64,000 nt of DNA from Smithella sp. (GCA_049523355.1 JBEKMY010000009.1:3539-67538); one strand, 5' to 3'; shown: positions 8,043 through 38,352, counted from the first letter of the stretch. Notes: generated by a model not told the origin, from the sequence alone. Numbers and translations are program-made.

Positions 8043-10385
8043 CTATTTTTGTTTACTTTTCATCTTATCGAGTCTTGACTGCGCCTCCTCGTGCCCTTGC
8101 GCAGCTGCCTCACTATACCAAACCTCTGCCGAAGAAGAATCCCGTTTAACGCCTCTACCCTCTTCTAATATTAAACCAATATTGAACTGTGCATCTGCAA
8201 TCCCTTTCTCAGCAGCTTTTAAAAACCACCTTGCAGCTTCGGCATAGTCCTGTAATCCTTGACTAAACATCAGTCCCAGATGATATTGGGCTTCAGCATG
8301 ACCCTGTTCACCGGCCTTGAAATACCATTTGGTTGCCGCAGCATTGTCTTGCTCAACGCCTGTACCTTCTTCATATGCCAAACCCAAATAAAACTGTGCG
8401 GATGCGATTCCCTGTTCAGCAGCCTTGCGACACCATTTGATGGTCTCTGCGTTGGTCTGCAAAACACCGGCGCCAGTTTCGTACATTGTGTTTAGATTAT
8501 TCCTGGCATCTGCATCACCCTGCGCGGCGGCCTTGAGATACCATTTAATTGCCGCAGCATTACTTTGCCCAACCAGCATTGCTCTGCCCATCGTGTCCTT
8601 ACCCCTTTGATACATCATACCCAACTTATTCTGGGCAGCAGCAATTCCTTTCCCGGCAGCTTTGATAATAGTCTCTGCATCTTCTTCCTCAACATCTTTA
8701 TCTTTTTCTGATACCAAACTGGTACCGGGCTGTTCATCTGCAATCCTCTGTTCCTCAACTTCGCCGGCAGCCTCTGCTTTGTCCTGCTCAACATCTTTTC
8801 TTTCATCTAATACCAAATCAGCACCGTGCTGCTTATCTGTAATCTCCTGTTCTTCAACCTTGCTGGTGGTCTCTACATTCTCTTGCGGTATATTTTTGCT
8901 TTCATCTAATGCCAAATCAACATGAAACTGTTCATCCGCATCCTCTTGTTCTGCAACCTCGCTGATATCCTCTGCCTTGTCTTGCTCAACATCTTTTCTT
9001 TGATCTAATGCCAAATCAACATGGAGCTGTTCATCCGCATCCTCTTGTTCTGTAACCTCGCTGACAGCCTCTGCCTTGCCTTGTGCAACATCCTTTCTTT
9101 CATCTGATACCAAACCAGCATCGTGCTGCTTATCTGCATCCTCTTGTTCTATAACCTCGCTGACATCTTCTGCCTTGTCTTGCTCAACATCTTTTTTGCC
9201 TTCTTCTGAATCGTTAATGATAGCCCCTGTTTTATTTAAAGGAATATCATACATCAAACTCAAATTGAACTTGGCTTCATCATGACCCTGTTCAGCAGCC
9301 TTGACATACCATTTTACAGCCTCAGCCTGATACATCATGCCAAGACTATTCTGGGCATCAGCATGGCCCTGCCCGGCAGCCTTGAGATACCAATTCATGG
9401 CTTGGGCATCGTCTTGCGGTACACCTTCACCATCCTGGTACATCTTACCCAGGTTATTCTGGGCATCAGCATCACCTTCTTCGGCAGCTTTGAGATACCA
9501 TTTTATGGCTTCAGTTCTGTCTTGCGGAACGCCTTTACCATGCTGGTACATCATACCCAAGTTATTCCGGGCAGCAGCATTGCCTTGTGCAGCAGCTTTG
9601 AGATACCATATCATGGCTTCAGCATAGTTCTGCTCAACGCCTTTACCATGCTGGTACATCATACCCAGGTTATTCTGGGCATCAGCATGATCCTGCCCGG
9701 CAGCCTTAAGATACCATTTTATGGCTTGGGCTTTGTCTTGCACAACACCTTTACCATTCTGGCACATCATCCCCAGTTCATTCTGGGCATCAGCATGACC
9801 CTGTTCGGCAGCCTTAAGATACCATTTTGCGGCTTCAGCATCGTTTTGCACCACGCCTTTACCCTGCTGGTACATCATACCCAGTTTATTCTGAGCATCA
9901 ACATGACCCTGCCCGGCAGCCTGGAGATACCACTTTATGGCTTCAGCATCGTTTTGCAGAACGCCTTTACCATACTGATACATCATGCCAAGTTCATTCT
10001 GGGCATCAGCATGACCCTGCCCGGCAGCCTGGAGATACCATTTTGCAGCCTCGACATCGTTTTGAGGAACACCAATACCTTGCTGGTACATCACTCCCAG
10101 TTCATTCTGGGCATCCTCATGACCCTGCCCGGCAGCCTGAAGATACCATTTTACGGCTTCGGCATCATCTTGAGGAACGCCCTTACCATGCTGGTACATC
10201 ATGCCCAGGTTATGCTGGGCATCAGCATGACCCTGCCCGGCAGCCTTGAGATACCATTTTATGGCCTCAGCATCATCTTGAGGAACACCTTTACCCTGCT
10301 GGTACATCATGCCAAGCAGGTTTTGAGCAGAAGCATCACTTGCATCTGCCAACTTCCTGTATAGTTTATCTTCTTTTTTACTCAT
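8043..10385 (-). CDS. Sel1-repeat (SLR/TPR-like) protein with central acidic repeat linker
   Basis: About 10 N-terminal and about 5 C-terminal 36-aa units of the type AEAxKWYxKAAxQGHAxAQxxLGxMYxxGxGVxQD. The centre has five 33-aa acidic repeats. No signal peptide is evident. Confidence 0.85.
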   Translation of the reverse strand: MSKKEDKLYRKLADASDASAQNLLGMMYQQGKGVPQDDAEAIKWYLKAAGQGHADAQHNLGMMYQHGKGVPQDDAEAVKWYLQAAGQGHEDAQNELGVMYQQGIGVPQNDVEAAKWYLQAAGQGHADAQNELGMMYQYGKGVLQNDAEAIKWYLQAAGQGHVDAQNKLGMMYQQGKGVVQNDAEAAKWYLKAAEQGHADAQNELGMMCQNGKGVVQDKAQAIKWYLKAAGQDHADAQNNLGMMYQHGKGVEQNYAEAMIWYLKAAAQGNAAARNNLGMMYQHGKGVPQDRTEAIKWYLKAAEEGDADAQNNLGKMYQDGEGVPQDDAQAMNWYLKAAGQGHADAQNSLGMMYQAEAVKWYVKAAEQGHDEAKFNLSLMYDIPLNKTGAIINDSEEGKKDVEQDKAEDVSEVIEQEDADKQHDAGLVSDERKDVAQGKAEAVSEVTEQEDADEQLHVDLALDQRKDVEQDKAEDISEVAEQEDADEQFHVDLALDESKNIPQENVETTSKVEEQEITDKQHGADLVLDERKDVEQDKAEAAGEVEEQRIADEQPGTSLVSEKDKDVEEEDAETIIKAAGKGIAAAQNKLGMMYQRGKDTMGRAMLVGQSNAAAIKWYLKAAAQGDADARNNLNTMYETGAGVLQTNAETIKWCRKAAEQGIASAQFYLGLAYEEGTGVEQDNAAATKWYFKAGEQGHAEAQYHLGLMFSQGLQDYAEAARWFLKAAEKGIADAQFNIGLILEEGRGVKRDSSSAEVWYSEAAAQGHEEAQSRLDKMKSKQK
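8700..9194 (-). repeat. tandem 99-bp coding repeats (acidic 33-aa units)
   Basis: KDVEQDKAEDVSEVIEQEDADKQHDAGLVSDER-type unit repeated 5 times. Coordinates are approximate. Confidence 0.7.
9282..10334 (-). repeat. tandem 108-bp coding repeats (Sel1 units)
   Basis: Near-identical 36-aa units in series. One unit (..LGMMYQ|AEAVKWY..) lacks 9 aa. Confidence 0.8.
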
Positions 10386-27984: not shown

Positions 27985-28836
27985 ATGGTCGCAACACTGC
28001 GCAAGTCTCTAAAAACAATAGAGGATTACAAGGCAGCTAATCCTTATTATACCGAGCTTTTAGATATAATGGCAGACATATTGATTTTGCGGGAAGAATA
28101 CCACATCAACATGAAAGATGGAATCTTTCATGTTGACGAAAACTTAATCACACAAAAAATGGAAGGGGGACTTCCTTTAATTGATTTTGCGGGAAAGAAA
28201 TATGATTTAACGCGTCCCAAAGAATATTTTAATTCTCTAATTTCCATTGCTGAAAGAAGGATGCCCGAAGTGGCGCAAAATATCATTGATATAATTAAAA
28301 GTCCTCAATTTGATTGGGAAAAAATTATTCGTGCTTCTTTTGACCATAAGATTGAAGTAACTGATGCTCAAGGATTGTCGGCAGGTCATGAAGCTGAAGA
28401 AAATATTGACCTGATTGATCTTTTTACTGAAGAAAGCTTAAGGCCGGAGCTGGAAAGTGTTGCCCAAAAATACGGGGAAATAGTAGAGAAATCGGGGTGG
28501 TCGGAAGGATATTGCCCCATTTGCGGCAAAGAACCGAAGATTGGCGAAATCAGGAATGAGGAAGAAGGGAAACGATATCTTTTTTGTCATCAGTGCGGTT
28601 TTAAATGGTATTTTCACCGGATCAAATGTCCATTCTGTGGAAATGAGGAACAGCATTCCCTGGCTTATTTTGAAGTGGAAGGTGAGGAACGTTATCGGGT
28701 AGATGTCTGTAATAAATGCCGGCGCTACATCAAAACTGTTGAATTGCCAAAATCAAGTGAAGAACCAAATCTCGACGTTGAAGATATTGCAACTTTGCAC
28801 CTGGATATGATTGCTTGCGATGAAGGATATAACTAG
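27985..28836 (+). CDS. fdhE: formate dehydrogenase accessory protein FdhE
   Basis: Four CxxC pairs (CPICG, CHQCG, CPFCG, CNKCRRYIK) at FdhE spacing. Confidence 0.8.
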   Translation: MVATLRKSLKTIEDYKAANPYYTELLDIMADILILREEYHINMKDGIFHVDENLITQKMEGGLPLIDFAGKKYDLTRPKEYFNSLISIAERRMPEVAQNIIDIIKSPQFDWEKIIRASFDHKIEVTDAQGLSAGHEAEENIDLIDLFTEESLRPELESVAQKYGEIVEKSGWSEGYCPICGKEPKIGEIRNEEEGKRYLFCHQCGFKWYFHRIKCPFCGNEEQHSLAYFEVEGEERYRVDVCNKCRRYIKTVELPKSSEEPNLDVEDIATLHLDMIACDEGYN

Positions 28837-30402: not shown

Positions 30403-32328
30403 ATGGGAAAAATTATTGGAATTGATTTAGGAACGACAAATTCGTGCGTAGCCATAATGGAAGGCGGAGATCCCGTTGTTATCGCCAATCAGGAAGGAAA
30501 CCGTACCACGCCATCAATTGTCGCCATTGCGGAGAACGGTGAGCGCCTTGTAGGTCAGGTTGCCAAAAGACAGGCGATTACCAATTCGGAAAATACTGTT
30601 TACGCCGTTAAAAGATTGATCGGCAGAAAATACAGTTCCAAGGAAATTCAGTACGACGTGAAGATAACCGCCTACAAGATTACTGAAGCATCCAATGGCG
30701 ATGCCCAGGTAACCGTTCGGGGGAAAAATTATTCTCCCGCTGAAATATCGGCTATGATTCTGACAAAAATGAAACAAACTGCCGAAGATTATCTGGGAGA
30801 AAAAGTGACGGACGCCGTCATTACCGTACCGGCCTATTTTAACGATTCACAGCGACAGGCGACCAAAGATGCCGGCAAGATTTCCGGTCTGAATGTTTTG
30901 CGTATTATAAATGAACCTACCGCAGCCGCTCTGGCTTACGGTCTTGACAAGAAGAAAGATGAAAAAATTGCCGTCTTTGACCTGGGCGGCGGAACTTTTG
31001 ATATTTCGATCCTGGAGCTGGGAGATGGCGTATTTGAAGTCAAATCCACCAATGGCGATACCCATCTGGGCGGGGAGGATTTCGATCAGCGCGTCATGGA
31101 TTATCTGGTTGCCGAATTCAAAAAAGATCAGGGCATAGACCTGCGCAGCGACAAGATGGCACTGCAACGATTGAAAGAAGCGGCGGAAAAAGCGAAAATG
31201 GAGCTCTCGACAACAATGGAAACAGATATCAATCTGCCTTTCGTTACCGCTGATGCCTCCGGCCCCAAGCATATGAACATCAAGCTGACACGTGCCAAAC
31301 TGGAATCTCTCGTTGAAGAGCTAATCAATAAAGTGGTCGGCCCGTGTCAGACAGCAATTAAAGATGCCAATTTATCAACGAAGGATATTGACGAAGTCAT
31401 TCTGGTTGGCGGTATGACGAGAATGCCGCGAGTGCAGCAAAAAGTGAAGGAAATTTTTGGCAGAGAACCGCACAAGGGCGTGAATCCGGACGAAGTAGTT
31501 GCAGTAGGCGCGGCTATTCAGGGCGGCGTTCTGGCGGGTGAGGTCAAAGATGTTCTGCTTCTGGATGTTACGCCTCTGTCTCTGGGTATTGAAACTTTGG
31601 GCGGCGTGATGACAAGGCTTATCGAAAAAAACACTACTATTCCCTGCAAGAAAAGCCAGATTTTCTCGACGGCGGCCGATAATCAGCCGGCGGTGAGCAT
31701 CCACGTTCTGCAGGGTGAACGTCAGATGGCACCTGATAACAGAACGCTGGGTCGTTTTGAACTGGTGGGCATTCCGCCCGCTCCGCGAGGCGTGCCACAG
31801 ATCGAAGTTTCTTTTGATATTGACGCCAACGGCATCGTGCACGTCAACGCCAAAGACCTGGGTACCGGTAAAGAACAAAGCATCAAAATTACCGCCTCCA
31901 GCGGCCTGTCTGAAGCGGAAATTGAAAAACTTGTCCGTGACGCGGAAGCGCACGCTGAAGAAGACAAGCGTCGCAAGGAACTCATCGAAACCAGAAATCA
32001 GGCCGATTCTCTGGTATATTCCGTTGAAAAGAATGTCAGGGAATTCGGCGACAAGGTAGATGCAGCTGAGAAAACAAAAATTGAAGAAGCAATAGCTAAA
32101 GCGAAAAAGGCTCTTGAAGGTGACGATATTGATGCCATCAAAAAGGCTCAGGATGATCTTATGAATGTTTCACATAAGCTGGCAGAAGCCATGTACGCCA
32201 AAACAGCAGGCAGTCAAGGCGGACCGGGGGCGGATGCCGGAGCGCAACAACAGGCAGGCAATCAACAACAGGCATCAGGCAAAAAAAATGACGATGTGGT
32301 TGATGCCGACTTTGAAGATGTAAAATAA
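30403..32328 (+). CDS. dnaK: molecular chaperone DnaK (Hsp70)
   Basis: [29 protein letters not shown] signatures. 641 aa. Confidence 0.98.
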
Positions 32329-32352
32329 TATAAGTAAAAGGATTGTTGTCAG

Positions 32353-32388
32353 TGCCCGGAATGGCGAAAGCTATTCCGGGCATTTTTA
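32353..32388 (+). terminator. rho-independent terminator of dnaK
   Basis: tgcccggaat-N10-attccgggca followed by TTTTT. The T-tract is the transposon target site. Confidence 0.85.
32381..32388. repeat. target-site duplication, left copy (CATTTTTA)
   Basis: Identical 8-mer at 35764-35771, immediately outside the two inverted repeats. Confidence 0.85.
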
Positions 32389-32412
32389 GGCAATTGTATA
32401 GTTCACAAACCC
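32389..32412 (+). repeat. left terminal inverted repeat (IRL)
   Basis: ggcaattgtatagttcacaaaccc versus the reverse complement of 35740-35763, ggcaattatatacttgacaaaccc. Confidence 0.85.
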
Positions 32413-32546
32413 AACTATTTATTGGAGGTAATAAAACTAGATGTATAAACACACTCGAAATTGCCCGATTTGTGGGTCACCGATTTATGAGACACAAATT
32501 TGGTCTGGCAAATGCGCACCAACTCCATATTACACTTGTTCATGTA

Positions 32547-33191
32547 TTACGTTTGTATATCCATATCAGCAGAGCGAGTATAGGCTTGAGCTGGTTGTAA
32601 TGTTATACCAAAAGGTGGCATCCCATGCGGTAGATGAGGCATTATTTCACCAATTACCGACAAGTCAGCATCAATTGGAAATAGAGCAGATTTGATTTCA
32701 TGAACAAGACCATAATCTTTGGCGTCGGTTGGATTGAGAGTAATACGATTGTTCATATCGTCTTCAAGTTTATGTAGAGGTTTACCAGTTGTATCGGAAA
32801 TGATTCGCGCAATGTTCGTTTGGTCAATTTTAACAGACCTTAAGTGTTCCTCAAGTTGCTTTTCATCGAATGAAGCACTTCCATTAAAATTAAAACGAAC
32901 GCCATGAATCAGGAAGCGTGCATGAGGAACAGAGCAACGATGTTTGCCTGCACAGAAAAGGATAACACCGATGGAATCAACGCTACCAAAGTTATAGGTA
33001 TCGACTTCAATGGGTGCCCCTTTGAGAAAATTGTAAATAGAGATACCATGAAAAACAGAGCCACCCGGAGACGACAACATGAGATGAATCTTCTCGCACT
33101 TTGCAGCAATCTTCTGATCGATTATTTTGAAAAGTTGATCAGCTGTCTGTGGTACAACGGAAGCCATTAAACGGATGTATGCTTCTTTCAT
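32547..33191 (-). CDS. ClpP-fold (peptidase S14-like) serine protease homolog, transposon cargo
   Basis: IHLMLSSPGG (cf. InSPGG), Ser in GSVDSIG, His in FLIHGV, Asp in EDDMNNRITL..DAKDYGLVHEI. AAGGAG lies 7 nt before the ATG. The last ~48 aa extend beyond the fold and overlap a plus-strand ORF. Confidence 0.7.
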   Translation of the reverse strand: MKEAYIRLMASVVPQTADQLFKIIDQKIAAKCEKIHLMLSSPGGSVFHGISIYNFLKGAPIEVDTYNFGSVDSIGVILFCAGKHRCSVPHARFLIHGVRFNFNGSASFDEKQLEEHLRSVKIDQTNIARIISDTTGKPLHKLEDDMNNRITLNPTDAKDYGLVHEIKSALFPIDADLSVIGEIMPHLPHGMPPFGITLQPAQAYTRSADMDIQT

Positions 33192-33220
33192 TGTGATGTC
33201 TCCTTTTGGGGAAGAAAAAT

Positions 33221-33367
33221 ATTATTTTATCATTTTATTTTTTTTATTTTCAATTGGCGGTACAGATAAAATCTTTTTCATTATAGAATCAAAATCATCC
33301 GCTGAGATTTTTTTTACATCCTCTTTTTCAATAACTGTTTTTTTTGTTCTACCCTTTTTATTTTCAT
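33221..33367 (-). CDS. 48-aa lysine-rich peptide, translationally coupled to the PIN gene (not in ORF track)
   Basis: MKIKRVEQKKTVIEKEDVKKISADDFDSIMKKILSVPPIENKKNKMIK. Its ATG overlaps the PIN stop as ATGA (33364-33367). Confidence 0.45.
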
Positions 33368-33873
33368 AACGCATTAGATTGCTCCGAATCAAACAAAGGC
33401 CCTATGGGTATTGACGGTAAACATATTTTAAGCTTCTGTCCATCCTTTCGTTCTACTTTTTTATCTAAAGAGATTAAGTGATCTGTATCGAATGTGTGAA
33501 GCTCATCAACATTATAAATTGCAGCAGTGGCAAGATGAATTGCATCTTGTGGAACCTTAAGACCGTCTAATCTCCGAAGAAGCCTTCTAGCGTAAGTCCC
33601 TATTTCTCTAGTAACTTGAACTAATATCACAAACGGTTGACCCAAAAAATCTTCAAATATTTTATCTTTTTCTTCTGGAAGTTGTTTTGCCGCATTCTCA
33701 CACCGCAATTTAAACACTTCTGCCAATGTAAAAGTTGAGGTTAGAATTTCAACTTCTTTATTCTGAGCCAACTCAAAAAAATAGCGCAATGGTTTTAGCC
33801 TATCTTCGTTTTCTTCATTAATCAATTCTATCCAATTACATGAATCCCAATATACTCTTTTTATTTTAGTCAA
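33364..33873 (-). CDS. PIN-domain nuclease (VapC-like), transposon cargo
   Basis: Acidic residues in the expected order (YWDSC, TLAEV, QDAIHLATA, HTFDTD). The preferred TTG start at 33873 overlaps the upstream stop by 8 nt. The alternative ATG at 33948 would overlap by 83 nt. Confidence 0.7.
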   Translation of the reverse strand: MTKIKRVYWDSCNWIELINEENEDRLKPLRYFFELAQNKEVEILTSTFTLAEVFKLRCENAAKQLPEEKDKIFEDFLGQPFVILVQVTREIGTYARRLLRRLDGLKVPQDAIHLATAAIYNVDELHTFDTDHLISLDKKVERKDGQKLKICLPSIPIGPLFDSEQSNAL

Positions 33874-34720
33874 GATTGCCCTCACGAAGTTTTTTGAGAT
33901 ATTCAGAAGGACTAATGCCTTGGGTAAAACCACTATCACGAATTGCATCTATAGAAACATCTCTGGACACAATATGCTCTATTTGAGCATCAATAATTCT
34001 ACTAATTTTACCGGTTTTTTCATAAGAAACCATTCCACTAACAATTACCCTTATGTGTTCCCAAACATCGTTGAGGTGCATAGATTCAGATACGTTATTT
34101 CTAATTTCTTCTGGAACTCGACACCATATCTCATCTTGAGTTAACCTATCACGGATACGAAGCGCAGGATGATCATAATCCGAGCCAGCAGCAACTAAGT
34201 ATCCATCAATAGAGCCAAGTTCTTTATGGGATAAATCTTCCGAAAAAAGACGAGCTGGCTGTTTATGTATTTCGCTCATTGCAGAATCAGCTATTTGAGG
34301 AGTAATCTCAATGGGAACCGAGTCTATTTCAGTGTCCAAGATAATACGTGTTTTGCCGATTCCATTATTACTTCTTTTAAGAATTCTCTCGATAATTTTA
34401 CTGGCATGAGCAGAAGTCCATTCGTCAGGAGTGATACCTTTTAATATGGACTTAGTACCATATCTTAGTTTTTCTTTTTGTTTTTTAGCAAGCTCGTCAA
34501 TGTTTACGCTAGAATCAAAGCTAAAAGCTTCAGCGGTCACTGTAAAAGGACTTTTCATACTGACCGAAACAAGTTTCCAAATGATGTTTTGCGAATCTTG
34601 TTTCTCATCTATCGAGACGAGTTGAAAGTAATCTAGAACTTGCTCCATAGCATCCTGAAGAGTTAAAAAGTCAGGATGAGATTCTGGAGGTTCAATGACT
34701 ATCTGTATTTTTTCGGCCAT
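33866..34720 (-). CDS. 284-aa protein of unknown family, first cargo gene after the transposase
   Basis: Long ORF co-oriented with and 50 nt downstream of the transposase. No motif I can assign. C-terminal tail SPSEYLKKLREGNLD immediately precedes the PIN gene. Confidence 0.6.
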   Translation of the reverse strand: MAEKIQIVIEPPESHPDFLTLQDAMEQVLDYFQLVSIDEKQDSQNIIWKLVSVSMKSPFTVTAEAFSFDSSVNIDELAKKQKEKLRYGTKSILKGITPDEWTSAHASKIIERILKRSNNGIGKTRIILDTEIDSVPIEITPQIADSAMSEIHKQPARLFSEDLSHKELGSIDGYLVAAGSDYDHPALRIRDRLTQDEIWCRVPEEIRNNVSESMHLNDVWEHIRVIVSGMVSYEKTGKISRIIDAQIEHIVSRDVSIDAIRDSGFTQGISPSEYLKKLREGNLD

Positions 34721-34770
34721 GGTAATTTTCTGCGCCAGTACAAAAGCGCCTCCTTTTTTATGTTGCTTGT

Positions 34771-35700
34771 TTATTCCATTGATGAGTCCCGATATATAAG
34801 TCTTTTCCCTTCAATGCCACGAAGAGCCAATATACTTCGTTCATCGTCATCAATTTTTCTTTCGTTATATCTGAAATTAAACTCGGATAAATATCTGTGA
34901 AGATGTTGTTCGCCGACATGATGATATACTCCAGTAATGCCGCGTTTCAAAATACTGAAATAATTTTCAACCGTGTTTGTGTGGACATCGTTTCTGACGT
35001 ATTCACCTTTACCATGATTCACGACAGAGTGAAAGAAATTTTTATTTAATCCATTGTAAGACTTAAAATCATCTGTCATTATTTTAGCGGATTTCTTAAC
35101 ATTTTCACGAATTATATTTTTAAGATTTACGCCTGTAACTCTTTGAACCGGCATCGACTTTACGTTTCCGTCTCTTTCAACTAAAGCGAATACTGGAATC
35201 TTGCCAACACCCCCACGCCCAGCGCGTAATTTCTTATTGTTGTGTTTATTTTTTTCTTTTCCGCCAATGTAAGTTTCGTCAACCTCAACTATACCGCCCA
35301 ATTTTCCTTTTTTATCGTCCAGAGCGTAACGGATACGATGATTCATAAACCAAGCTGTTTTATAGGTAACTTTCAGCATTCTATGAAGCTGATGAGAACT
35401 CATTCCCTTTTTGGAAGAACAAATCAGGAAGGTGGCAAGAAGCCATTTATTGAGCGGAACATGACTATCTGCAAAAACTGTCCCGACTGTTACAGAAAAT
35501 TGTTTCCGGCAACTCTTACACTTCCACACACCCTCACGTACAGGCTTTTTGGAATCTTCCTTGCCTTGTATTGGATAGTGCTTTTCAGTACTGCCACAAT
35601 GAGGGCAAACCGCGCCATTAGGCCATCTTACACTTTCTAAGTATTGTCTGGCTTTATTTTTATCTGTGAAGTATGGTGTATCAAATCCTATGTTTTCCAT
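34771..35700 (-). CDS. IS1595-family transposase (N-terminal zinc ribbon + ISXO2-like DDE domain)
   Basis: CPHCGS...CKSCRKQFSVTVGTVF, VEVDETYIGG, IMTDDFKSY, HTNTVENYFSILKR motifs. 309 aa with no frameshifts. Confidence 0.85.
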   Translation of the reverse strand: MENIGFDTPYFTDKNKARQYLESVRWPNGAVCPHCGSTEKHYPIQGKEDSKKPVREGVWKCKSCRKQFSVTVGTVFADSHVPLNKWLLATFLICSSKKGMSSHQLHRMLKVTYKTAWFMNHRIRYALDDKKGKLGGIVEVDETYIGGKEKNKHNNKKLRAGRGGVGKIPVFALVERDGNVKSMPVQRVTGVNLKNIIRENVKKSAKIMTDDFKSYNGLNKNFFHSVVNHGKGEYVRNDVHTNTVENYFSILKRGITGVYHHVGEQHLHRYLSEFNFRYNERKIDDDERSILALRGIEGKRLIYRDSSME

Positions 35701-35721
35701 AATGTTCCTCCATTTGATTTT

Positions 35722-35750
35722 AATATAACAACTTCAAATGGGTTTGTCAA
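35722..35750 (-). promoter_or_regulatory. inward-facing sigma70-like promoter partly inside IRR
   Basis: On the minus strand: TTGACA (35750-35745), 17 nt, TATATT (35727-35722), then GGAGG 7 nt before the transposase ATG. Confidence 0.6.
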
Positions 35751-35763
35751 GTATATAATTGCC
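35740..35763 (-). repeat. right terminal inverted repeat (IRR)
   Basis: See IRL. 21/24 match. Confidence 0.85.
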
Positions 35764-35771
35764 CATTTTTA
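35764..35771. repeat. target-site duplication, right copy (CATTTTTA)
   Basis: Identical to 32381-32388. Confidence 0.85.
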
Positions 35772-35897: not shown

Positions 35898-37178
35898 ATG
35901 AATTTTTATAAAATTTTGGACAAAATATTCATTTTGGTATTGATCATTTTCATCATCTGCTGTTCAAAAATGGCTGTCGCTGATGAAAAGCCCATCCCCG
36001 TTTCACCTGTGGAAATAAAATCATTACCGGCAGCACAGCCGGAAACCGGACCTCCGACAATTATGACGCCGTCAAATAAGCCCAACCGCAATGCGATAGG
36101 ATGCGTGCTGCCCTTATCCGGACAATATGCCGCCTGGGGACATAAAGCATCGGATGCGATTCTGTTGTCGGCAAAAATATTTAACAGGGAAAATAAAACT
36201 TCATTGGAAGTTATTGTAGAAGATTCCGGCGGGTTGCCGGAGAAAACAAAAGCGGCCATAGCACATTTGGCCAATGATAAAAATGTTATGGCAATTATCG
36301 CCGTTACTGAAACGGCAGAAGCTGCTGAGGCAGCCCGCGAAGCCCAGAATTGGAAAGTGCCTCTAATTTTAATAACGTCCAAAGAGGGAGTTACATCTGC
36401 AGGCGAATATGTCTTCCAACATTTCCTGATACCCACACAGCAAATCAGGGCTTTAGTACATTACACCTTTGATGATTTGAATTGCGCGATATTTTCGATT
36501 TTGTATCCGCAGGATAATTATGGAGAGGAAATGGTGAAAATTTTCAGCAGGGAAGTAATAAACATAGGCGGTAAAGTGGAAAAAGCTATTCCCTATAGCA
36601 GAGAGCAAACAGATTTCGCTGACGAAATAAGCAAACTAACCGGCCGTGTTGTCAGATCTTCATCAAAAACCAAGGCTGATAAAAATGATGATCAAGGACC
36701 GGCATCTGTTGACTTTGAAGCTTTGTTTATTCCTGATTCATATTTGCGGGTAAAAATGATTACTTCGCAACTTAATTTCTATGATGTGAAGGGTTTTCAA
36801 CTTTTAGGCACAAGTTTATGGCACTCGCCGGAGTTGCTGAAGAATGGCGCTGAATATCTGGAGGATGCTGTTTTTACGGACAGTTTTTTTGTAAATGGTT
36901 TCTATCCGGAAACGATCAACTTTGTTGACACTTATTACGCAGCATACAGCCGGGAACCGGAAAACATTGAAGCGCTTTCTTTTGATACAGCCGGAATAAT
37001 TTTTAGTATACTGGAAAACAAAAATGTTAAAACAAGGCAGGATCTTGTCGCAGGTTTAATAAAAATGGAAAATTACAATGGCGCGACCGGTAATATATAT
37101 TTTGATTCAAACAGGGTTGCTCAAAAGACTGCTTTTATATTGAAAGTTAAAGATAAAAAGCTTGAACAGGTACGATGA
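35898..37178 (+). CDS. periplasmic-binding-protein type I lipoprotein (LivK/ABC substrate-binding or LpoA-like)
   Basis: Signal peptide with lipobox-like IICC, then a PBP1 pattern (GCVLPLSGQYAAWG...). Confidence 0.6.
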   Translation: MNFYKILDKIFILVLIIFIICCSKMAVADEKPIPVSPVEIKSLPAAQPETGPPTIMTPSNKPNRNAIGCVLPLSGQYAAWGHKASDAILLSAKIFNRENKTSLEVIVEDSGGLPEKTKAAIAHLANDKNVMAIIAVTETAEAAEAAREAQNWKVPLILITSKEGVTSAGEYVFQHFLIPTQQIRALVHYTFDDLNCAIFSILYPQDNYGEEMVKIFSREVINIGGKVEKAIPYSREQTDFADEISKLTGRVVRSSSKTKADKNDDQGPASVDFEALFIPDSYLRVKMITSQLNFYDVKGFQLLGTSLWHSPELLKNGAEYLEDAVFTDSFFVNGFYPETINFVDTYYAAYSREPENIEALSFDTAGIIFSILENKNVKTRQDLVAGLIKMENYNGATGNIYFDSNRVAQKTAFILKVKDKKLEQVR

Positions 37179-37273
37179 TGTTGATAAATTACCTGCTGCT
37201 GCTTTTTTTCTTTTTGATAAATAATATCTGATTGCTTATTAAACAATATTTAAATTAGAGGATGGAAAATTTA

Positions 37274-38041
37274 ATGCGTTTTCTATTGACCAACGATGAC
37301 GGAATTTATGCCAAAGGATTAGGCGCTCTCTATAAAGAACTTTCCAGGGAAGCTGATTGCCTGATTGTTGCGCCGGAAATTGAACAAAGCGCTGTGGGAC
37401 ATGCGATCACAATTTCTCGTCCCCTGATGGTGCGTCGCGCCACTAAGAATTCGAACTTTTTAGGATATGCCGTTTTAGGCACACCTGCGGACTGCGTAAA
37501 AATAGGAATCACCGAATTATCGGATAAGACGGTGGATCTGGTTGTCTCGGGAATCAACAGGGGAGGCAATGCCGGTATCAATGTTCTTTATTCGGGAACA
37601 GTATCTGCCGCGACAGAAGGAGCAATTCTGGGCGTCCCGTCAATGGCCATTTCTCTTGACACTCATCAAGAAGCTGATTTTACCTATGCTGCCAAATTCG
37701 CCCGCAAAATGACCCGGTTAATTTTACGCAATTCGAAACAACTCAAAGGAAGCGCAATTAATGTCAATATTCCCTGTATTCCTTGTGAAAAAATCAAAGG
37801 CGTTGTTGTTGTAAGGCAAGCCAAAAGCAACATTGTCGAAACTTTCGAGAAGCGCGTGGATCCAAGAGAAAATATTTATTACTGGTTTGCCGGTGAAGCT
37901 CAATGCGCTTGCGAGCAGAAAGATACTGACGTCGGCGCTCTGGCGGCGGGCTTTATCACAATCACACCAATTCAATATGATATGACCAGATACGATTTAC
38001 TCGATACCCTTAAGGATGTTGTGAAATCAGATAAATTTTAA
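37274..38041 (+). CDS. surE: 5'/3'-nucleotidase SurE
   Basis: MRFLLTNDDGI...GINRGGN...YSGTVSAA signatures. Confidence 0.9.
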   Translation: MRFLLTNDDGIYAKGLGALYKELSREADCLIVAPEIEQSAVGHAITISRPLMVRRATKNSNFLGYAVLGTPADCVKIGITELSDKTVDLVVSGINRGGNAGINVLYSGTVSAATEGAILGVPSMAISLDTHQEADFTYAAKFARKMTRLILRNSKQLKGSAINVNIPCIPCEKIKGVVVVRQAKSNIVETFEKRVDPRENIYYWFAGEAQCACEQKDTDVGALAAGFITITPIQYDMTRYDLLDTLKDVVKSDKF

Positions 38042-38352
38042 TCATGTGGATAATTCAACCGGATAACGGGTAAAAATCATCAATAGTCATACAAAAAAAT
38101 GTTCAGAAATGTACCTGTCCTTATTGGGCACCAGCGACCCGAGGATTAGTTAAATCCTGCCTTGTTATATAAACATCCCGGACTATTTGCCGGGCTATAC
38201 CTTTCTCTGTATTTAAGTAAAGGGAGCGCGATATGGCTATCAGTGTTTTTGCGAGATAAAACGGGCTTCATCTTTGCAAGTGGAACCATAAGATGATTGA
38301 ATTACCCGTTCAGGTTTTAAAAAGCGTTATGCTATACCGGCAGATAAGTTGC

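Follow-up and report, generated by a model that had tools for sequence, protein, structure and literature searches.

The DNA analyzed was a stretch of 64,000 nucleotides from Smithella sp. (GCA_049523355.1, JBEKMY010000009.1:3539-67538), referred to below as the window, and all coordinates are counted from its first nucleotide. Between dnaK and a gene for a 426-aa protein the window carries a 3375-bp element, measured between two direct repeats, which ends in inverted repeats (IRs) and contains a transposase gene and four passenger open reading frames (ORFs), all five on the minus strand. Positions 32389-35763 very probably represent one transposable unit, an IS1595-family element of the passenger-carrying type (tIS), recently inserted, polymorphic, and loaded with a modular payload typical of its lineage.

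The flanking octamer, CATTTTTA, was found at 32381..32388 (left copy of the target site duplication, TSD) and at 35764..35771 (right copy), and is also the 8-bp overlap of the flank alignments in contigs from which the element is absent. Directly inside it are the terminal IRs, one distal to the transposase gene (IRR, 32389..32413) and one adjoining it (IRL, 35739..35763), both located by IR alignment and by a degenerate-pattern scan. Of 24 aligned positions, 21 are the same in GGCAATTGTATAGTTCACAAACCC (32389-32412) and GGCAATTATATACTTGACAAACCC (the reverse complement of 35740-35763); with the next base included (32389-32413 and 35739-35763) the count is 22 of 25, and no longer inverted repeat exists within the 4.2-kb region. 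With the degenerate IR pattern at no more than three mismatches, only the IRL and IRR sites were hit in the 64-kb window, and 0 of 100 shuffled sequences matched. No internal IR-like site was found in the window element at up to eight mismatches, the region following the transposase gene included. The GC content of the element is 37.1% compared with 43.0% in the flanks (3 kb per side), a modest gap, with transposase part and cargo equally AT-rich. A preliminary description, made from the sequence of the window alone, had proposed the two IRs, the identical 8-mer outside them, the length of 3375 bp, an AT-rich interior and cargo enclosed by the IRs. The repeats proved to be extendable by one position, the 8-mer and the length were confirmed at the coordinates given, the four passenger ORFs do lie inside, and the difference in composition holds at a modest level.

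The transposase gene (34771..35700, minus strand) is an unbroken ORF for a 309-aa DDE transposase with an N-terminal zinc ribbon. The protein matched PF12762 (DDE_Tnp_IS1595) over the full model (1-153/153; 3.6e-43), its residues 15-67 matched PF12760 (Zn_ribbon_IS1595; 2.3e-16), and its score against NCBIfam NF033547 (IS1595 family transposase) was 223 bits at a cut-off of 75. The preliminary description had named this family and had allowed that the transposase might group outside it; Pfam and NCBIfam both place it in IS1595. It is 91% identical to its counterparts in two related elements described below (L026 and L030) and 85% identical to that in a third (L027). A promoter-like site, TTGACA-17-TATATT (11 of 12 positions, with TG), was located upstream of the gene by consensus scan only (35722..35750, minus strand). 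Its -35 hexamer falls within IRL, and the site may serve as the promoter of the transposase gene.

In transposase type, zinc ribbon, short IRs and 8-bp TSD the element belongs to the IS1595 family. It also has the structure of a tIS, with the passengers lying within the IRs and the empty site differing by exactly the IR-to-IR segment plus one TSD copy. The ends, GGCAATTATATAC, resemble those of ISNwi1-type elements (GGnnATTAT), a subgroup with passengers, to which the element may belong; this resemblance is a lead only. The window element shares with the tIS of the IS1595 family a single zinc-ribbon/DDE transposase, short IRs, an 8-bp duplication, passengers inside the IRs and a total length within the 2-5-kb range. 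It differs from them in that the exact combination of element and cargo was absent from the plasmid collection and from other species-representative genomes. A megablast search of the PLSDB plasmids with the complete element gave no match, and the relatives of the transposase detected there by tblastn were all below 50% identity. The tIS are insertion sequence (IS)-like elements with passenger genes, a class whose definition was based on the IS1595 family (Siguier, Gagnevin and Chandler 2009, as cited in PMC7986276 and PMC11891212). Since cargo-bearing IS1595 elements are an established class, the element is less surprising than the rating in the preliminary description implied.

Filled and empty alleles at the dnaK terminator

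Contigs carrying the locus were found by exact-sequence look-ups of DnaK and the 426-aa protein, and originated from peat metagenomes assembled independently (JGI, ENA, Logan). A search for the empty site had been suggested in the preliminary description. The predicted 177-nt site, constructed by deleting the element and one repeat, was present exactly in at least 12 contigs with identical DnaK and/or 426-aa protein, and the BLAST breakpoints in the empty contigs were exactly 32388|35764 with an 8-bp overlap. Filled contigs (L001/L005/L019, L002, L003, L006 and L022) were 99.96-100% identical to the window. The flanks of filled and empty alleles were 99.99-100% identical, with 0-1 mismatch per 5-14 kb; compared with the window, the empty contig L007 had one mismatch in 13.9 kb and the empty contigs L015 and L025 were 100% identical. 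More divergent strains were also empty, namely L011 and L012 (98-99%) and L009 (99.5-99.85%), and empty alleles were recovered from more samples than filled ones. Both alleles were present in sample ERZ27249788, where L002 is filled and L024 is empty. Several contigs stop right at one end of the element (among them L014 at 32388 and L023 at 35764), as is expected where the assembly graph contains both alleles.

On the strength of the exact empty site, the near-identical flanks and the co-occurring alleles, the insertion is real, recent and still polymorphic in the natural peat Smithella population. The preliminary description had called it recent and possibly active. Its dating agrees with the near-identical flanks and the two alleles in one sample, and a sister element with two identical copies in one genome (see below) accords with activity; this copy is probably active at present. 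No relative was found with the cargo beside dnaK and lacking the IRs, an arrangement that would have spoken against an insertion. At this locus the movement of a cargo-bearing IS can be seen with unusual clarity in a wild population, boundaries, duplication and target being defined without experiment, and the element is a good example that lends itself to experimental work.

Three contigs break within or just after the transposase gene: L004 (35766..34696) about 75 bp past the transposase stop, L006 starting at 34897 and L003 ending at 34166. These breaks may come from related elements in the community with a common transposase segment and other cargo, or from low coverage.

The left flanking gene, dnaK (30403..32328, plus strand; 641 aa), was taken from the ORF list and matched PF00012 (HSP70). 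The right flanking gene (35898..37178, plus strand), from the ORF list and the exact-protein look-ups, encodes the 426-aa periplasmic-binding-protein-like protein. The element begins 52 bp after the dnaK stop codon and ends 126 bp before the start of the 426-aa gene, and in empty alleles the two genes are 186 bp apart. RNA folding placed the hairpin and U-tract of the dnaK intrinsic terminator at 32351..32388 (plus strand). The terminator consists of a 15-bp stem that includes a 12-bp G+C core, followed by AUUUUUA, and the duplicated 8-mer takes in the U-tract together with the last base of the stem. Folding gave the filled allele an energy of -33.9 kcal/mol (z -7.6) and the empty contig L007 one of -30.2 (z -5.6). 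Hairpin and U5 are the same in filled and empty alleles, and the 126 bp preceding the 426-aa gene are also intact. The claim of a precise insertion into the tail of the terminator, made earlier from the window alone, is thereby substantiated with real empty-site contigs.

Related elements and their passenger genes

A transposase scan of species-representative genomes gave 32 loci, and the IR motif (up to five substitutions) was sought in all loci then fetched. Ten elements with IR pairs were obtained: L026, L030, L027, L031, L032, L033, L036, L040, L052 and L058. The last, from a related Smithella metagenome-assembled genome (MAG), was obtained outside the transposase scan by exact-protein look-up of a homologue of the passenger protein X (see below). 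A perfect 8-bp TSD was present in 11 of 11 elements, the window element and its ten relatives, and the TSDs of the relatives were all different and all A/T-rich. The relatives were 2047-3683 bp long, had a GC content below that of their flanks and were all cargo-bearing; no bare IS of about 1 kb was found among the clade members examined. L026 and L030, from one 2-Mb contig of one deltaproteobacterial MAG, were identical over 2712 bp and had different sites and flanks, so the whole cargo-bearing unit of this type transposes intact.

In the reconstructed empty sites of the window element, L031, L032 and L052, and possibly of L033, the TSD falls within a U-tract that immediately follows a strong hairpin; the TSDs of the remaining relatives lie in other A/T-rich DNA. 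These sites suggest that the lineage prefers A/T-rich 8-mers as targets, and the choice of such an 8-mer, often the U-tract of a terminator, appears to be a property of the lineage and not a coincidence. In G+C-rich genomes A/T-rich 8-mers concentrate at terminators, which would explain the precise position of the insertion and would make such insertions nearly neutral. An 8-bp staggered cut in the A/T-rich target, the last stem base plus the U-tract, followed by repair, would have duplicated CATTTTTA. Because of that duplication the left copy still supplies dnaK with its hairpin and AUUUUUA, and the insertion should be nearly neutral to the host. Landing in U-tracts that are regenerated by duplication would explain how insertion beside essential genes such as dnaK can come at low cost.

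The DNA shared by the window element and L026 is limited to IRL with the transposase gene (88.8%), the small gene (73%) and IRR, and that shared with L058 comprises all but the distal slot. The window IRR is 93-94% identical to the IRRs of L027 and L058, which have other distal cargo. Such mosaic conservation points to modular exchange on a conserved backbone. The gene order throughout the clade is transposase, a two-gene pair (slot 1), a small protein and a variable distal slot. In the window element, L026/L030, L027, L033, L052 and L058, slot 1 holds an unannotated protein of 243-309 aa and a PIN protein, and in L031 and L036 a SocA/Panacea antitoxin-domain protein with a partner of 100-120 aa. 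L040 (2047 bp) has a perfect TSD and no X+PIN pair. The distal slot holds a ClpP-like protein in the window element, HicB-like and HicA proteins in L027, an N6/N4 methylase-Mrr fusion in L036, two unknown proteins in L058, a 62-aa membrane peptide in L026, and a Panacea pair in L068 and in the decayed copy L061-L067.

Some of these loci merit separate mention. The distal cargo of L036, from a Pyrinomonadaceae MAG, joins an N6/N4 DNA methylase and an Mrr-type restriction-endonuclease domain in one protein of 495 aa (L036:2350-3837), and this minimal IS thus carries a single-polypeptide gene of restriction-modification (R-M) type. In L061-L067 (e.g. L061:6001-8511) the genes for X (283 aa), PIN, a Panacea antitoxin and a 149-aa protein occur in that order with no transposase, in what looks like a decayed copy, and in L061 they are followed by an IRR-like relic, CGTGATTATATACTTTAGAAACCC (reverse complement, 8488-8511). 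These loci adjoin a cNMP-binding/CAP12-PCTIR TIR protein, and PLD-domain ORFs were called in three of the seven contigs; the surroundings resemble a defence island. The metagenomic locus L077:2906-5824 contains a truncated IS1595 transposase, X, PIN, a small protein, another ClpP-like gene (182 aa) and then IRR.

Passenger 1, called X (33866..34720, minus strand; 284 aa), was examined by hidden Markov model (HMM) search, AlphaFold2 and gene neighbourhood and belongs to no curated family. It had no match in Pfam, NCBIfam, PADLOC or PHROGs and was not found in a scan of viral contigs. A word-indexed search gave 16 clusters, and an HMM search with their alignment gave 593 representatives (50% identity, E <= 1e-3), 199 of them at E <= 1e-30; members of the family are almost all about 280 aa long. 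The AlphaFold2 model, computed on a 15-sequence alignment (mean pLDDT 81, pTM 0.51), predicts an alpha/beta part at the N-terminus, followed by an OB-like beta-barrel at the C-terminus, and its Foldseek matches in BFVD were uncharacterized phage proteins (E 2e-10). By hhalign the X-family profile matched the 251-aa protein of L052 (93.7% probability, E 2e-7) and gave an equivocal result with the 309-aa protein of L033 (21% probability). Homology to the 243-aa protein of L026 is not claimed (hhalign 1.2% probability, no similarity by BLASTP). That protein belongs to phrog_19868, of unknown function, and BLASTP of the window PIN protein against its PIN-like partner also showed no similarity.

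Passenger 2 (33364..33873, minus strand) is a 169-aa PIN-domain protein (PF01850, 2.1e-8) and a putative RNase toxin. Its TTG start overlaps the X stop by 8 nt, and the acidic residues D10, E52, D110 and D129 were invariant in 13 homologues. PHROGs gave nothing for this protein or for the small protein that follows it. Twelve metagenomic loci with X were considered; PIN lay directly downstream of X in 9 of the 9 with available sequence, and an IS1595-type transposase, whole or fragmentary, lay directly upstream in six. X+PIN without an adjoining transposase occurred in L061-L067 and L082-L085.

The pair resembles the VapBC type II toxin-antitoxin (TA) systems in having two genes in one operon, that for the putative antitoxin leading, an overlapping stop and start, and the full D-E-D-D set of a PIN toxin. 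It differs in that X is three to four times the size of VapB, has no recognized DNA-binding antitoxin fold (ribbon-helix-helix [RHH], AbrB, helix-turn-helix [HTH] or Phd) and carries a predicted OB-like barrel. As a PIN toxin is present and a small DNA-binding antitoxin is not, the pair was not filed as VapBC. X+PIN would be a translationally coupled TA-like or abortive-infection-like module, with PIN as the RNase toxin and X as an unusually large neutralizing or regulating partner (antitoxin or sensor), possibly with an OB fold.

Passenger 3 (33222..33374, minus strand), identified from gene calls, BLASTP and alignment, encodes a lysine-rich protein of 50 aa, with an 11-nt overlap between its gene and the PIN stop. 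The motif F(D/E)xxx(K/R)KIL(S/A)xP(P/K) was found in six elements, the window element included, and three G+C-rich elements have a looser version, AFExKLRKIA. A basic protein of 50-70 aa follows slot 1 in nearly all elements; a positional counterpart was noted in all nine distinct relatives examined, with clear similarity in five and only a loose one in three that are G+C-rich, and the window protein matched its L026 counterpart with a BLASTP E value of 3e-11. It is probably a regulator or a component of the backbone.

Passenger 4 (32547..33191, minus strand), 30 nt from the small-protein gene, encodes an orphan ClpP-fold peptidase of 214 aa (PF00574, 1.2e-27). A promoter-like site upstream of it, TTGAAA-18-TAAAAT with TG (33224..33253, minus strand), comes from a consensus scan only and is not evidence of function. 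Against the NCBIfam ClpP models, with cut-offs of 228-361 bits, the best scores were 63-77 bits, below all of them. The protein appears N-terminally truncated, at the end where canonical ClpP has the axial loop or helix required for docking of ClpX/ClpA, and has a C-terminal extension of about 45 aa. Of the Ser-His-Asp triad it keeps Ser73 and His96, and the third position, Asp in ClpP and Pro in PpClpP1, is taken in the alignment by Arg149. Among 120 homologues, Ser and His were conserved in 120 and Arg in 118. The closest solved structure is 9UXT, PpClpP1 of Pseudomonas plecoglossicida (E 2e-20); the Pfam match begins at model position 15, which is residue 2 of the protein, and the sequence is collinear with N-truncated PpClpP1 from residue 15. 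PpClpP1 is an N-terminally truncated ClpP of low activity with a Ser-His-Pro triad, which does not bind ClpX alone and forms mixed rings with canonical ClpP (PMC12900304). The two proteins are alike in the N-terminal truncation that the alignment indicates for the passenger, the Ser73/His96 numbering and a third triad position other than Asp. They differ in that the passenger has Arg where PpClpP1 has Pro, continues into an additional, conserved tail of about 45 aa at the C-terminus, and is encoded by an isolated, horizontally mobile gene.

The family of the ClpP-like protein comprises more than 2000 clusters at E <= 1e-10, with 65-86% identity across bacteria and a Methanoregula. Its PHROGs matches were head-maturation-protease families and reflect generic ClpP-fold similarity only. 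No tIS context was found among the close homologues checked (66-80% identity); the surroundings seen were a neighbouring type I R-M system, an integrase island and a phage-like array of small genes. Homologues in mobile and defence contexts, none of them a tIS, argue that the ClpP-like gene is an independent mobile gene. The second ClpP-like gene, in the distal slot of L077, is only 30% identical to that of the window, and the independent arrival of a ClpP-fold gene twice in this slot of an X-PIN element hints at a functional link to X-PIN.

An 84-aa ORF just inside IRR (32441-32695, plus strand) was rejected as probably spurious; it had no family match and lies antisense to the part of the ClpP-like gene that encodes the conserved C-terminal tail. 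A GGAGG stands 11 nt upstream of it, and its N-terminus is CxxC-rich (MYKHTRNCPICGSPIY...).

The payload and alternative readings

If the locus is read as a recently transposed tIS with a lineage-typical payload, the zinc-ribbon/DDE transposase would recognize the two IRs of about 25 bp and insert the whole 3375-bp unit. The payload, probably outside the transposition chemistry, would most likely stabilize the element or pay its way by addiction and/or phage defence. For X+PIN the best analogy would seem to be the TA pairs found as integral parts of Tn3-family transposition modules (Lima-Mendez et al. 2020, PMC7157771). In both cases a TA-like pair, PIN toxins included, adjoins the transposition genes and does not lie among ordinary cargo, and there are signs that different TA types were repeatedly acquired and exchanged within one transposon lineage. 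The Tn3 family differs in having a TnpA of about 1000 aa, replicative transposition and a resolvase, compared with an IS1595 transposase of about 310 aa and no resolvase here; the PIN partner here is also a 284-aa unannotated protein and not an RHH, AbrB or Phd antitoxin.

Several observations weigh against this reading or against parts of it. The exact-protein look-ups gave no second copy of the window element, and all contigs with an identical transposase map to the dnaK locus. The preference for terminators was drawn from four or five of 11 sites, judged without a formal background model. PADLOC v2 gave no significant match for X, PIN, the small protein or the ClpP-like protein. The OB-fold call for X came from weak Foldseek matches in the PDB at E ~2e-3 (LysRS N-domain, SSB and Teb1). 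No antitoxin or DNA-binding domain can be recognized in X, and its 284 aa far exceed the length of classical VapB antitoxins. X+PIN also lies directly downstream of an IS1595-type transposase in six metagenomic loci, in the window and in L058, even where X is only 31-43% identical.

This last association would also fit a reading in which X, PIN and/or the small protein are accessory transposition factors of this IS1595 lineage and not cargo: PIN might cleave the second strand or act on an intermediate, single-stranded DNA ends might be bound by the OB-like X, and the small basic protein might be architectural or regulatory. The OB-like barrel of the X model is in keeping with such a role, as is the small gene, one of only three DNA segments conserved despite different cargo, with a positional counterpart in all nine distinct related elements. 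Plain IS1595-family elements, on the other hand, transpose with the transposase alone. Slot 1 is also filled by a Panacea-antitoxin pair (L031, L036) or by an unrelated pair of 243-aa and PIN-like proteins (in L026 and L027, whose transposases are 85-91% identical to that of the window), which makes it interchangeable among TA-like modules; L040 has its perfect TSD without X+PIN, and X+PIN occurs in L061-L067 and L082-L085 with no transposase adjoining. Accessory factors are accordingly considered unlikely.

The two other alternatives concern the history of the element. It could be ancestral beside dnaK, with the empty contigs produced by precise excision, a loss and not a gain, and the coexistence of filled and empty alleles with near-identical flanks does not by itself give the direction of change. 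The divergent strains of the species-level group (L009, L011 and L012) are all empty, however, so ancestral presence followed by precise excision is very improbable; empty alleles are known from more samples than filled ones, and the GC content of the element (37%) is below that of the flanks (43%). Precise excision leaving exactly one TSD copy is also rare for DDE insertion sequences. A plain IS of about 1 kb might instead have mobilized adjacent DNA once by means of a surrogate end, through one-ended (ISEcp1-like) or composite capture, with the cargo accidental, and the contig breaks just past the transposase stop (L004) or within the transposase gene (L006) could be read in its favour. It is rejected as scarcely credible, since no IR-like sequence follows the transposase gene at eight mismatches and no bare IS of about 1 kb was found among the ten relatives, which are 2.0-3.7 kb long with proper IR pairs and TSDs. 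Against it stand also the quality of the distal IR (a 21 of 24 copy, closely matched in L027 and L058) and the movement of the entire cargo-bearing unit in L026/L030.

With the element thus read as a tIS inserted as one unit, a broader proposal can be put forward tentatively, although we hold it somewhat more likely to fail than to stand. By analogy with the Tn3 modules, X+PIN with the small protein could make up a new, so far unannotated family of TA or abortive-infection type, numbering about 600 clusters at 50% identity, co-evolved with the IS1595 lineage as a selfish stabilizer and provided with a large OB-fold antitoxin or sensor, and the lineage could be a terminator-homing shuttle for TA and defence cassettes. 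A shuttle of that kind, homing to terminator U-tracts, could spread without breaking genes.

A whole clade of IS1595-type elements carries slot-organized TA-like or defence-like payloads (X-PIN, Panacea pairs, HicAB, the methylase-Mrr fusion and the odd ClpP), and even minimal transposons can therefore spread such modules between distant phyla. Within a limited literature search this slot-like payload of TA and defence type is, to our knowledge, new, as are the population-level evidence of very recent insertion, the tie of the X family to PIN and to this transposase lineage, and the Ser-His-Arg ClpP-like family. X, as an unannotated family, and the Ser-His-Arg ClpP-like peptidases are both flagged as worth testing.

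Other differences among the contigs were noted in the neighbouring sequence. The surE-like gene (window 37262-38041; L007:9489-10256) was called at 259 aa in some contigs and at 255 aa in others, and in L011 and L012 (98-99% identity) a segment of about 170 bp just after it (window ~38056-38223) has been replaced or has diverged. A second polymorphic insertion, of about 1.22 kb, was present in contigs of this Smithella population (L008:3210-4429 and L020:1098-2317). It lies upstream of grpE-dnaK between fdhE-like and SIS-domain genes, where the window (~28832-28836) has the empty state. Its ends are TACCATGTAAC...GTTACACGGTA, and its products are an HTH protein of 168 aa and a DDE_3 protein of 206 aa, an IS630-like arrangement with the transposase apparently in two frames.

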